A DNA stretch of 64,000 nt from Kiritimatiellia bacterium. Its GTDB lineage: Bacteria > Verrucomicrobiota > Kiritimatiellia > RFP12 > UBA1067. Within the stretch, counting starts at the first letter, position 1. Each line of letters opens with the position of its first letter. The stretch is from positions 49-64,048 of the forward strand of contig JAILJX010000124.1 of NCBI GenBank assembly GCA_024694365.1, given 5' to 3'. Below are positions 47,876 through 61,026 of this stretch, one piece after another. The position numbers were made by a program, and so were the translations under genes. The notes beneath the pieces are model-generated. The model was not told the origin of the DNA, made no database searches, and saw only the letters and a program-made list of their open reading frames with translations.

Positions 47876-47884
47876 TGATATAAT
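47876..47884 (+). promoter_or_regulatory. Extended -10 box TGATATAAT: candidate promoter of the T3SS operon
   Basis: TGATATAAT at 47876-47884 starts 10 nt after the giant-gene stop and ends 16 nt before ATG 47901. No SD in between, so the leader is short. Confidence 0.5.
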
Positions 47885-47900
47885 ATAGCAAATCCAAAGA

Positions 47901-48305
47901 ATGCAAATTAACCTCCTAGCGCGATTGGCAGAGGCTATCGGGTATCCAGACAAGGTGCCCGATGACGTTTTGTCGTTTGTTTTCCGCATCGACGGCGCTG
48001 AGATAAAGGCGTTCTCGTCAGGAGAGTCCGTAAGGTTGGTTTGCGAAATTGACGCCGGCGAGGACGACTTGCCCGCGTTGGCCGACTGGGCCGTCGGGAG
48101 GATGCTGAGGGAAGAGGCGACGCTTGCGGCCGCGCCGTCGGGTAAGCCTTTTCTCTGGCAGGAGGCGTCCGCGAAGGCGGACGGTCCGTCGTTGAGAAGA
48201 TTCTTCGAGAAGTTCCTCGATTCGTGCGACTGGTGGCGGGCGCGTGCGGAAGAGAAGGAATCTGGGGGCGCGCCGCGATTCCCCAGCGTGATGATAAGGC
48301 CATGA
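47901..48305 (+). CDS. Class I T3SS chaperone, YscB-like
   Basis: 134 aa, small and acidic. N-terminus MQINLLARLAEAIG... and fold pattern fit CesT/SycE/YscB-type chaperones. Sits directly upstream of sctC, as yscB does in Ysc-type loci. Confidence 0.6.
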   Translation: MQINLLARLAEAIGYPDKVPDDVLSFVFRIDGAEIKAFSSGESVRLVCEIDAGEDDLPALADWAVGRMLREEATLAAAPSGKPFLWQEASAKADGPSLRRFFEKFLDSCDWWRARAEEKESGGAPRFPSVMIRP

Positions 48306-48314
48306 GGAGTTGAG

Positions 48315-58450: not shown

Positions 58451-59088
58451 CAGAGGCGCGCGAACTCGTCGCGAACGCGACGCTTTGGCCCAAGGTAAGC
58501 GTATTCCTCTGGGACTTCGCTCCGCTCATCCATCCCTCCCATCTCGCCGGCGGAAAGCCCATCGACCCGACGGCTTCCGTGCGGCTCAAGCGCTATGTCC
58601 TCGAAGCCCATGACGTAAAGCCGTGCTTCCACTCTTTCCCCGCAGATGACGCAAGCCGCCTGCTTCTTCTTGACGCCGAAGTCTTCGATCTGCTCGCCAA
58701 GTGGCTTGGCGCCCTGGACTTGGCCGGCGCCCTGAGGCGAGTGATGAAAGGCGCCGACGTCAAAGCCCTCAAGTCTTCGCTCGCAGGCGTCTATCCCGAC
58801 GTCTTCGCGTACCAGCCTTATTTCGCCAGATTCAAACCCAAGGCCGAGGATTGCTCTGCATCGGGAGCCGATCTGGGCAAGGAGGCCGTGAAAAGCGGCT
58901 ACGCAAGCCTCTATTCGCTCGTGTCGAAGCTCCCCGAGGGGCTTCTGCATCGCCTAAGGCTGCGGTTGCCTGCGGACGCTCCGCTTCCCGCGGGAGACGT
59001 CCCGGCAGCCTCTCCCGATGCGATGGACAAGGTTCTCCTGATTCTCAAACTCAAATTCCCGGAGGCGTATCAGCTATGCTCCTCGTGA
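58447..59088 (+). CDS. sctK: T3SS sorting-platform protein SctK (YscK family)
   Basis: About 213 aa (ATGA overlap at 58447; alternative ATG 58438). LWDFAPLIHPSHL..., LLLLDAEVFDLLAKWLGA... and LHRLRLRLPADAP resemble YscK. Position between sctJ and sctL. Confidence 0.65.
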   Translation: MTEARELVANATLWPKVSVFLWDFAPLIHPSHLAGGKPIDPTASVRLKRYVLEAHDVKPCFHSFPADDASRLLLLDAEVFDLLAKWLGALDLAGALRRVMKGADVKALKSSLAGVYPDVFAYQPYFARFKPKAEDCSASGADLGKEAVKSGYASLYSLVSKLPEGLLHRLRLRLPADAPLPAGDVPAASPDAMDKVLLILKLKFPEAYQLCSS

Positions 59089-59696
59089 AGAAAAAAAATC
59101 TCCAGCTCGTCTCCGACCGCCGTCTCGTGAAGGCTGCGGACGTGGCGACCGTCCGCACCGCAGACGAAATCATATCCGCCGCCGAGGCGGAAGCCGAGCG
59201 CATCCGCGCAGACGCCAAGGCCGCGTTCGAGGAGGAGCGTCAGCGCGGGTATGCGAAGGGGATTGCGGACGGCAAGGCAGAGATCGCCGACAAGAAGCTC
59301 GAGCTTGTGGACTCTTCGGTCGCCTTCATGGAGTCTGTCGAGGGCAAGATGGCCGGCGTGGTGATGACGGCTCTCAGAAAGTGCGTGGACGAAATCGGCG
59401 ACGAGCAGCTCGTCGTGCAGATCGTCCGCAAGCTGATGGACGCCGTGATCCGGACGCAGAAGCGCCTTATCATCAAGGTCTCCCCTGCGATGGTCCCCGT
59501 CGTGCGCGACAGGCTCAAGGAGCTTCTTTCGCGCTACCCGACGATAGAGAGCGCGGATGTCGTCGAAGACGAGCGCCTTACAGGCACCGCCTGCGTTCTC
59601 GAGACGGAAGCCGGCGTAGCCGACGCCTCGATAGACACCCAGCTCGCTGCGATAGAGCGGTCGATAAAGCGTCATCTTTCCCGGAGCGTAAACTGA
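59076..59696 (+). CDS. sctL: T3SS stator protein SctL (YscL/FliH family)
   Basis: 206 aa. FliH-like [34 protein letters not shown] plus a C-domain. Overlaps the sctK end by 13 nt. Confidence 0.75.
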
Positions 59697-59697
59697 A

Positions 59698-61026
59698 ATG
59701 GCGGGTTACCTCGACTACATTCCCGAAGTCTTGATGCGCGCCGTGCAGGATGCGCAGGAAATCGACGTGAAGGGAAAGGTCATCCAGGTCGTCGGCACGA
59801 TCGTGAAGGCGTCGGTGCCCGGGGTGAAGGTCGGGGAGATATGCATTCTCAGGAATCCCTGGGAAAACTACGAGGTGCAGTCCGAAGTGGTCGGCTTCAC
59901 GAAGGACGCGGTGCTGCTTACGGCCCTCGGGGCGATGATCGGCATCTCCGCCGAGACGGAGGTCATCCCTACGCGCCGCGTGCAGATGGTGCCGGTCGGG
60001 AAGAATCTCCTCGGGAGGGTCCTTGACGGACTCGGCAGGCCCATGGACGCCGACACCAAAGGTCCGCTTCGCCCCGACGGCTACTATCCGGTGTACGCGC
60101 CGCCGCCTTCCCCCCTCGAGCGCACGATGATAACAAAGCCCATATCGCTCGGCGTGAGGGCTCTGGACGGCATGCTTACCTGCGGCGAAGGCCAGAGAAT
60201 GGGCATTTTCGCGGCTGCCGGCGGAGGCAAATCCACTCTGCTCGCGCAGATAATCCGCAACACCGAGGCCGAGGTCACCGTCCTCGCGCTCATAGGCGAG
60301 CGCGGACGCGAAGTGAGGGAGTTCATCGAGAAGGATCTCGGACCGGAAGGGCTGAAGAAATCCGTTCTCGTCATATCCACTTCAGACCGCAGCTCGATGG
60401 AGCGTCTCAAAGCCGCATATGTCGCTACCGCGATCGCCGAGAGCTTCCGCGACAAGGGGATGAAGGTTCTCCTGCTGATGGACAGCGTCACGCGCTTCGG
60501 GCGCGCACAGCGCGAAATCGGCCTCGCCGCAGGCGAGCCTCCTACGAGGCGCGGCTTCCCTCCGAGCGTCTTCTCCGAGCTGCCGAAGCTCATGGAGCGC
60601 GCCGGCAATTCCTCGAAGGGCTCGATCACGGCGCTCTACACCGTGCTCGTCGAAGGCGACGACATGACAGAGCCCATAGCCGACGAGACGAGGTCCATCC
60701 TCGACGGACACATCATCCTTTCGCGCAAGCTCGCGCAGATGAACCATTATCCCGCGATAGACATCCTTTCTTCCGTCTCGCGCTGCCAGAGTGCGATAAT
60801 CCCGAACGACCACAAAGCCGCCGCAGCGAAATTGAGGGCGCTTCTGGCCAAGTATGCGGAAGTCGAGCTTCTTCTCAAGATCGGGGAGTACAAGAAAGGC
60901 TCCGATCCCGAAACCGACGAGGCTATCGCCAAGAACGGGGCGATAAATGCGTTCCTCAAGCAGGGCCTCTCCGAAAAACCGCAGTACGGCGAGACGATAG
61001 AGAAGCTTAAAGAAGCCGTATCGTGA
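59698..61026 (+). CDS. sctN: T3SS ATPase SctN (YscN/InvC/EscN family)
   Basis: 442 aa. Walker [11 protein letters not shown], Walker [19 protein letters not shown]1/FliI-like throughout. Confidence 0.95.

Follow-up and report, generated by a model that had tools for sequence, protein, structure and literature searches.

Within type III secretion systems (T3SSs), SctX and SctY have been described as confined to the Ysc family (PMC5864894, PMC7498569), and the components SctC, SctJ, SctN, SctQ, SctR, SctS, SctT, SctU, and SctV are described as the ubiquitous core (PMC3459982). Well-characterized Ysc-type systems include Ysc-Yop, encoded on the Yersinia plasmid pYV, and Bsc of Bordetella, which belongs to a Ysc subgroup and corresponds to the btr-bsc genes of B. 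pertussis and B. bronchiseptica (PMC7498569). In the Planctomycetes-Verrucomicrobia-Chlamydiae (PVC) superphylum, non-chlamydial T3SSs are on record in Verrucomicrobia, and Verrucomicrobium spinosum provides the precedent for such an injectisome (PMC3459982, PMC3681970). Our literature search for T3SSs in Kiritimatiellota or Lentisphaerae found no paper describing one. Here we analyze 64,000 nucleotides (nt) of a Kiritimatiellia bacterium (assembly GCA_024694365.1, contig JAILJX010000124.1, positions 49 to 64,048; referred to below as the window) that carry 17 consecutive T3SS genes on the + strand, at positions 47901 to 61026. This locus is most likely the promoter-proximal part of a Ysc/Bsc-like injectisome operon that is native to gut Kiritimatiellia.

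Genes were identified using Pfam and NCBIfam profiles, BLASTP and hhalign comparisons with Yersinia proteins, and orthologues from related loci (Table 1). An initial annotation, made from the nucleotide sequence, had described the 17-gene + strand run and its gene order, from a box at 47876 to sctN, and both are borne out by the map of open reading frames (ORFs), the start-codon contexts, and the Pfam and NCBIfam profiles. The eight stop/start overlaps that it cited are all present exactly as described (TGATG at 50871, 52812, and 56729; ATGA at 52049, 52426, 57094, and 58447; and GTGA at 54923). Its statement that the system is an injectisome and not a flagellum also holds, because the secretin SctC, the needle SctF, the gatekeeper SctW, and an FHA-type SctD were all found by profiles. 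For SctV and SctN, the injectisome models outscored the FlhA/FliI models, and a flagellar origin was rejected on the basis of domain content and similarity scores. Further matches were obtained for SctW, with TIGR02568 (111.5 bits; cut-off, 89.5) and TIGR02511 (34 bits), and the orthologues of SctX match PF09474. The start codon of sctF is probably that at 56388, which gives a protein of 113 amino acids (aa). The hhalign probabilities were 67% for SctF with YscF and 79% for SctY with YscY.

A number of observations place the system close to the Ysc family. (i) The Ysc-family marker pair SctX and SctY is present in the window. (ii) Sequence identities with the Yersinia pYV proteins amount to 65% for SctN, 53.5% for SctV, 39% for SctJ, 33% for SctL, and 29% for SctC. 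(iii) Full-length SctV has its best match among PDB entries in the LcrD-type structure 7alw (776 bits), and its cytoplasmic (C-terminal) domain scores 392 bits with YscV, 279 bits with Chlamydia CdsV, and 143 to 164 bits with EscV, InvA, SsaV, and MxiA; on such similarity scores and on domain content, a Chlamydia-type system was rejected. (iv) In the comparison with plasmid-borne systems, SctV is 53% identical to LcrD and AscV, 48% to the protein of a Bradyrhizobium plasmid, 42% to Ralstonia HrcV, and 37 to 39% to the MxiA, Pantoea, and Rhc proteins. The Ysc-type character proposed in the initial annotation is thus retained, with SctX and SctY present and with LcrD/YscV and AscV as the best solved and plasmid homologues. 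The SctV phylogeny that had been proposed along with it was computed by neighbor joining (674 columns, 100 bootstraps). The window falls within a clade of gut Kiritimatiellia (98 to 100%) that is joined by Victivallales-labeled and related sequences (100%), and this group is sister to sequences from Verrucomicrobiota, Planctomycetota, and Sulfidibacter (97%). The whole PVC/environmental group is in turn sister to the Ysc sequences of Yersinia and Aeromonas (93%) and not nested within them. Since several reference families, namely, Chlamydiales, Myxococcales, Desulfovibrionales, and SPI-2, are missing from this tree, the assignment supported by these sequence comparisons is that of a Ysc-like system in a sister clade, and formal membership in the Ysc family is not established.

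The comparison with individual systems shows both likenesses and differences. Fifteen of the 17 window genes have a counterpart in the Yersinia Ysc-Yop system (L086 in our locus set). Similarity is significant for YscC, YscJ, YscL, YscN, and YscV; SycN, YscY, YscF, and YscI are matched by profile, and YscB, YscG, YscK, and YscX are each the top-ranked Ysc partner, weakly. Collinear sub-blocks are yscB-yscC, yopN to yscV, and yscD-E-F-G-I-J-K-L. Yersinia differs in that YopN and TyeA are separate proteins and that the genes form three plasmid operons, whereas the window has a fused gatekeeper and a single operon on a chromosome-like contig; the split YopN and TyeA that characterize the Ysc systems sensu stricto (Yersinia, Pseudomonas, Aeromonas, and Vibrio) are therefore not found here. 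The window furthermore has no YscH/YopR, YscA, pilotin YscW, LcrG, LcrV, LcrH, or YopB/D and contains the AIM24-like gene as an extra. In Bordetella Bsc, the gatekeeper BopN is also a single YopN-TyeA-type polypeptide, and the series sctW-chaperone-SctX-SctV-SctD-E-F-chaperone is collinear with BP2257-BP2265 (PMC7498569). In addition, relatives of the window encode a sigma factor of the extracytoplasmic function (ECF) type and STAS and SpoIIE-phosphatase/kinase-domain proteins that resemble BtrS, BtrV, BtrU, and BtrW (PMC7498569). Bordetella, however, belongs to another phylum; SctY lies between sctJ and sctK and the AIM24-like gene after sctC in the window, whose operon is headed by a CesT-type chaperone and the secretin. 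Equivalents of Bsp22, BopB, and BopD were not identified, and the regulatory module is absent from the window and present in the relatives L094 and L095.

The T3SSs of the PVC/environmental sister group (Verrucomicrobiota, Planctomycetota such as Bremerella, and Sulfidibacter corallicola) have SctV proteins that are 56 to 58% identical to that of the window. The sister-group PVC genomes have their T3SS genes scattered among several loci, whereas gut Kiritimatiellia normally possess one operon of ~24 genes. Bremerella (L099, 7437-12088) keeps the Yersinia virA order yopN-tyeA-sycN-yscX-(116 aa)-sctV, and in a verrucomicrobial locus (L098, 9578-12103), sctV has only a TPR gene beside it. The Chlamydiales T3SS (Cds) belongs to the same superphylum and has the CdsE/CdsG type of needle co-chaperone in common with the window; it differs in that SctX and SctY are reported for the Ysc family only (PMC5864894). 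The Bradyrhizobium plasmid system mentioned above is that of B. japonicum p2S06B (L088, 6741-22171), which is flanked by insertion sequence (IS) elements, shows the arrangement sctI-J-?-L-N-O-V-D(FHA)-YscE-F...Q-R-S-T-U, and encodes an SctV that branches just outside the Ysc and PVC group.

For four proteins with little or no signal alone, orthologues from related loci were aligned. Of the orthologues of the first gene, 28 of 57 match PF05932 (CesT; best E value, 9e-8). Among 35 Yersinia proteins, hhalign pairs the product of this gene best with YscB (E value of 0.003), and BLASTP pairs it best with SycT. In the gatekeeper-chaperone pair, SycN is clear (hhalign probability of 96.9% to Yersinia SycN), and the YscB candidate is a CesT-family protein in the YscB position with weak specific similarity. 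Both types of needle co-chaperone flank sctF, in positions as in the Ysc family. The YscE-like gene overlaps the sctD stop codon by 13 nt; an alternative ORF at 56210/56216-56440 was rejected, since comparison with orthologues revealed it to be an arginine/serine-rich artefact in the wrong frame. Five of 39 orthologues match TIGR02501, and hhalign gave an E value of 4e-4 with a Bradyrhizobium YscE-family protein. The AlphaFold2 single-sequence model of this protein has a predicted local distance difference test (pLDDT) score of 87, and the top Foldseek match in the PDB is EscE (7y6b_A; template modeling scores of 0.68/0.75), with an E value of 1.1 that is non-significant for a small helical protein and with YscE at rank 15. 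For the YscG-type TPR protein, TIGR02508 (YscG) is matched by 59 of 62 orthologues (7.5e-8) and CdsG by 55 of 62, and the window copy itself has weak matches to HrpB1, SctY, and CdsG. The initial annotation had regarded this accessory set as the hallmark of gammaproteobacterial injectisomes. SctX, SctY, SycN, the YscG type, and, weakly, the YscE type can be maintained, the match to YscB is weak, and the set is not restricted to gammaproteobacterial pathogens, since it is also found in Bordetella (PMC7498569) and Planctomycetota. The AIM24-like protein has no counterpart that we found among the Yersinia Ysc proteins. Its window copy has no match, and 40 of 56 orthologues match PF01987 (AIM24; best E value, 2e-5); it lacks a signal peptide, shows a median identity of 57% in relatives, and gave no usable fold in a single-sequence model (pLDDT of 36). 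In L006, L007, and L059, its gene has moved to after sctN.

Table 1. Features of the T3SS locus and its borders in the window
Feature	Position	Strand	Evidence or remark
Glycine-rich beta-helix-repeat protein, 2619 aa	40007-47866	+	19% glycine, Sec signal peptide; directly upstream of T3SS
Extended -10 promoter-like box TGATATAAT	47876-47884	+	16 nt upstream of first gene
CesT-family class I T3SS chaperone, YscB position	47901-48305	+	CesT E 0.015, full length
sctC, outer-membrane secretin	48315-50252	+	TIGR02516 342.5 bits (cut-off 238); Pfam Secretin, Secretin_N, T3S N0
AIM24-like protein, 205 aa	50254-50871	+	Via orthologues, PF01987
sctW, gatekeeper, YopN-TyeA-type single polypeptide, 393 aa	50871-52052	+	HrpJ residues 69-233, TyeA 306-385
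SycN-like chaperone	52049-52429	+	PF21665 29 bits; TIGR02503 E 1.7e-10
SctX, YscX-like early substrate	52426-52812	+	TIGR02502 E 2.5e-6, 27.8 bits (cut-off 30), full length
sctV, export gate	52812-54926	+	PF00771 756.7 bits; TIGR01399 882.8 bits
sctD, inner-membrane ring, FHA-type cytoplasmic domain	54923-56104	+	PF16697 39 bits (cut-off 33.2); TIGR02500 E 3.7e-19
YscE/EscE-like needle co-chaperone, 80 aa	56092-56334	+	Frame set by orthologues
sctF, needle subunit	56388-56729	+	PF09392 E 2e-6, 28.3 bits (cut-off 29.4)
YscG/CdsG-type TPR needle co-chaperone	56729-57097	+	Orthologue matches to TIGR02508 and CdsG
sctI, inner rod	57094-57489	+	PF17001 34.5 bits (cut-off 32.4); TIGR02497 31 bits (cut-off 23.45)
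sctJ, inner-ring lipoprotein	57515-58105	+	LAGC lipobox; TIGR02544 200.8 bits (cut-off 162)
SctY, YscY-like TPR chaperone of SctX, between sctJ and sctK	58109-58450	+	NF052415 E 1.3e-9, full length
sctK, sorting-platform protein	58447-59088	+	PF06578 25.4 bits (cut-off 22)
sctL, stator	59085-59696	+	NF005392 177.5 bits (cut-off 159); TIGR02499 108 bits
sctN, ATPase, last T3SS gene of window	59698-61026	+	NF005391 750.9 bits (cut-off 657)
Terminator-like hairpin and T-run, overlapping promoter of thioredoxin-family gene	61065-61101 (hairpin with T-run 61065-61095)	+	End of T3SS block

The locus would thus provide SctC as secretin, SctD and SctJ as inner rings, SctV as export gate, SctF as needle together with its co-chaperones, the inner rod SctI, the gatekeeper SctW with SycN-like and CesT-family chaperones, the SctX/SctY pair, SctK, SctL, the ATPase SctN, and the AIM24-like protein. 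In Yersinia, the SctX/SctY pair docks on SctV and thereby starts the export of early substrates. In relatives, the operon continues as sctN-sctO-sctP-sctQ-sctR-sctS-sctT-sctU, followed by the ECF sigma gene, a gene for a 90-aa protein, two genes for large proteins that each precede one for a CesT-type chaperone, and genes for STAS and SpoIIE/HATPase_c_2 proteins. The module beyond sctU is found at 13071-20717 in L094 and 4822-12468 in L095, where the large proteins of 699 and 440 aa are candidate effectors or translocators. Within the 64-kb window, tblastn gave no match for sctO, sctP, sctQ, sctR, sctS, sctT, or sctU or for the ECF sigma factor, regulators, and chaperone pairs of the relatives, and no translocon or tip gene was found. 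Of the ubiquitous core, the window contains only SctC, SctJ, SctN, and SctV; SctQ, SctR, SctS, SctT, and SctU are absent. DNA homology with the T3SS relatives ends at 61024, in the sctN stop codon, and is followed by ~40 nt of AT-rich DNA, the hairpin, and genes for a thioredoxin-family protein and an Rrf2 regulator. The former gene has a strong promoter (TTGACA-18-TATCAT with TG). The closest orthologue of this gene pair, in L096, is 71% identical, has the same promoter architecture, and is bordered by a GH18 gene on one side and gyrA on the other; since the pair has the same promoter in this T3SS-free neighborhood, the T3SS block of the window abuts native housekeeping DNA. We know of no T3SS that secretes without SctR, SctS, SctT, SctU, and SctQ. 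With no SctRSTU core and no SctQ, the predicted gene set of the window would not be able to build a secreting machine by itself.

As to the host, SctV is 100% identical to NCBI entry MCR5415071 from a 'Kiritimatiellae bacterium' metagenome-assembled genome (MAG; contig of 64,341 nt), which agrees with the PVC background that had been guessed. The Sct proteins there are already named by the PGAP annotation, with accessions running from ..66 (sctC) to ..81 (sctN). A scan of the GTDB species genomes yielded at least 106 matching stretches, and 80 loci were examined. They share a common gene order and have SctV identities of 73 to 87%, and their record titles refer mostly to MAGs from the rumen, other ruminant gut compartments, horse feces, and the Hadza human gut. 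Three records (L006, L015, and L030) are titled Lachnospiraceae, Anaerovoracaceae, and Bacteroidaceae and contain a Kiritimatiellia-type operon with SctV identities of 81 to 83%; these bins are probably mislabeled or contaminated. At the database level, the lineage is therefore already represented with this exact system, and the finding is less novel than first presented. The lineage-specific features are the fusion into one operon, the AIM24-like gene, and the displaced SctY, while the proteins as such are PGAP annotated and common in public gut MAGs. The codon usage of the T3SS genes correlates with that of the flanks (r = 0.966) as well as one half of the flanks does with the other (0.950); the GC content at third codon positions is 0.81 in the T3SS genes versus 0.73 in the flanks. 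Since its codon usage is that of the flanks and it recurs in 80 species-level gut genomes, we regard the operon as long resident and not recently imported; the promoter motif common to the T3SS and the flanks and a setting of housekeeping and glycan-degradation genes are in line with this. The initial annotation had likewise judged the locus to look resident, from the lack of a compositional break and of a flanking integrase, IS element, or tRNA.

Alternative explanations of the locus differ widely in probability. A complete injectisome operon within 47876-61026, which the initial annotation had seen in it, is suggested by the 17 recognizable T3SS genes in one tight operon, but this reading is hardly credible, since SctO and SctP and five of the nine core components, SctQ, SctR, SctS, SctT, and SctU (PMC3459982), are absent by tblastn and, in relatives, encoded directly downstream. 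It is similarly improbable that a gammaproteobacterial Ysc/Psc/Asc island already described was acquired by recent horizontal transfer: Ysc is indeed the closest characterized family, but SctV shares no more than 53% identity with LcrD and AscV, the window lies inside a deep Kiritimatiellia/Victivallales clade within a PVC-rich group, the codon usage is that of the host, and neither a tRNA nor, among the ORFs scanned, mobility genes were found. More weight, though still little, is to be given to an assembly or binning artefact, in which the sctN/thioredoxin junction, or even the entire linkage between the T3SS and its flanks, would be a chimera of two strains or organisms. The contig was assembled from a metagenome, several related records bear implausible taxon labels, and the junction lies only ~3 kb from the contig end. 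Against this, the independent Logan assembly of SRR15145249 is 100% identical over window positions 60738 to 63361 and thus has the same junction, which is therefore no peculiarity of a single assembler. The T3SS also has its codon usage and the TGNTATAAT motif (see below) in common with the flanks, terminator and promoter are arranged in an orderly way at the junction, where no repeat occurs, and the giant gene upstream is linked to the T3SS in relatives too. We consider an artefact improbable.

The genuine alternatives for the distal half are its presence elsewhere in the genome and its loss. All 17 ORFs are intact and conserved in length, and a relative-rate test (12 concatenated proteins, 2651 columns) gave chi-square values of 0.1 to 3.2, which are not significant, for a lineage that is ~75% identical to the nearest sampled species. 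Given intact genes without rate acceleration, the distal half would most likely lie elsewhere in the genome as part of a split locus, to which we assign about even chances, and would otherwise have been deleted very recently, which appears distinctly less probable. A split would be in keeping with the sister-clade PVC genomes and their dispersed T3SS genes. In the case of loss, the 17 genes would be the non-functional leftovers of a decaying operon that has been deprived of sctO-U, the regulators, and the effector pairs and has not yet accumulated disruptions. The break immediately after the sctN stop codon into a housekeeping neighborhood, the independent partial loci in other species (L053, L028, L031, and L020), and the single contiguous operon that is canonical for the clade are in line with such a remnant. 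We nevertheless regard it as rather unlikely, given that ~13 kb of ORFs remain intact with conserved lengths, coupling, and promoter, that there is no significant acceleration despite the ~75% identity to the nearest species, from which it follows that any loss would be very recent, and that the partial loci elsewhere give full-coverage tblastn matches for their remaining genes.

Several points weigh against our interpretation of the locus as the proximal part of a native, split Ysc-like operon. The two halves are contiguous in 47 of ~51 informative relatives, which makes a split arrangement unusual for the clade, and the absence of sctO-U refers to the 64-kb window. When the SctR of a relative was used as a query at NCBI, none of nine clusters listed among the best 120 matched the accession range of the MAG (MCR54...). 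Since the Logan contig was assembled from the same reads, a strain-mixture chimera retains some probability. The SctV tree was built by neighbor joining, without the four reference families named above. The YscB-like, YscE-like, and AIM24-like assignments combine weak or sub-threshold scores with gene position, and profile searches of PDB sequences with orthologue alignments of the first gene and of the AIM24-like, YscE-like, and YscG-type proteins returned no significant T3SS match.

The partial and altered loci of other species take different forms. In L028 and L031, sctR directly follows sctN, with no sctO, sctP, or sctQ, and in L020 it follows sctL, with sctN to sctQ absent. The operon of L053 breaks off behind sctI, where genes for aconitase, ornithine carbamoyltransferase, RNase HII, and YchF come next, and L016 has a cassette of HNH endonuclease, Dcm methylase, and RadC inserted between sctL and sctN.

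The promoter-like box that the initial annotation had placed at 47876 is present as TGATATAAT, and no Shine-Dalgarno sequence was found between it and the first ATG. The motif TGNTATAAT occurs 10 times in the window (at 7487, 7531, 10866, 28985, 29064, 32398, 32448, 39900, 45198, and 47876), compared with 0.14 occurrences expected by chance, an enrichment of ~70-fold. Most of these boxes lie just upstream of gene starts, and that at 45198 is on the - strand inside the giant gene. Ten matches versus 0.14, located near gene starts, therefore indicate a real promoter-type signal of this genome, and the distance of only 8 to 16 nt between some boxes and the start codon suggests very short or absent leaders. 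In 26 of 58 relatives, TGNTANAAT is present in the 120 nt upstream of the orthologue of the first gene. Transcription of the operon probably starts from the extended -10 box (47876), and its 17 genes are translationally coupled.

The giant gene upstream of the T3SS has its own TGATATAAT box at 39900. Homologues with ~30% identity are found upstream of the operon in 11 relatives, and a GH123 gene occupies this position in L003. The 2619-aa protein is possibly a surface adhesin; its membership in the T3SS is uncertain, and its Sec signal peptide makes it an unlikely T3SS substrate. Two genes upstream of the T3SS, at 38293-39762, the window encodes a 489-aa protein with a weak match to BspA-type leucine-rich repeats; no link to the T3SS was seen. 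Leucine-rich-repeat proteins are commonly effectors or adhesins. The flanks otherwise encode an IlvE-type aminotransferase, RecJ, a GalE-like epimerase, a class 1B dihydroorotate dehydrogenase (PyrK/PyrD), LptF/G, TonB, a sulfatase, a GH2 enzyme, HtrA/PDZ proteins, a Sel1 protein, and a cluster resembling type II secretion and type IV pilus systems with prepilins. This separate cluster (13611-24474) comprises two T2SSE ATPases, a T2SSF protein, a secretin, and four proteins with a prepilin-type N-methylation motif. No tRNA was found in the window, and no integrase, IS, or transposase domain was found among the ORFs scanned, in agreement with what had been noted at the outset.

The locus looks complete by eye yet is devoid of the export-gate core, and calls on the presence or absence of T3SSs in MAGs therefore need whole-genome checks. 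The gut radiation of Kiritimatiellia is usually regarded as one of free-living glycan foragers. We tentatively propose, at somewhat less than even odds, that gut Kiritimatiellia (at least 80 species-level genomes) may carry a vertically inherited, functional injectisome, sister to Ysc, that would deliver effectors into eukaryotic cells, for instance, those of gut ciliates, fungi, or the host epithelium. It would possess lineage-specific parts (the AIM24-like protein and, in many cases, the giant beta-helix exoprotein of the adjacent gene) and a Bordetella-like control by an ECF sigma factor and partner switching, and partial loci, including that of the window, would represent ongoing splitting or loss. 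With these data, the classical Ysc family gains a PVC-rich sister group, a result of relevance to the spread of YscX/Y-containing injectisomes. The significance is mainly ecological: a Ysc/Bsc-like injectisome across the gut Kiritimatiellia clade suggests direct contact of these abundant uncultured glycan degraders with eukaryotic cells.

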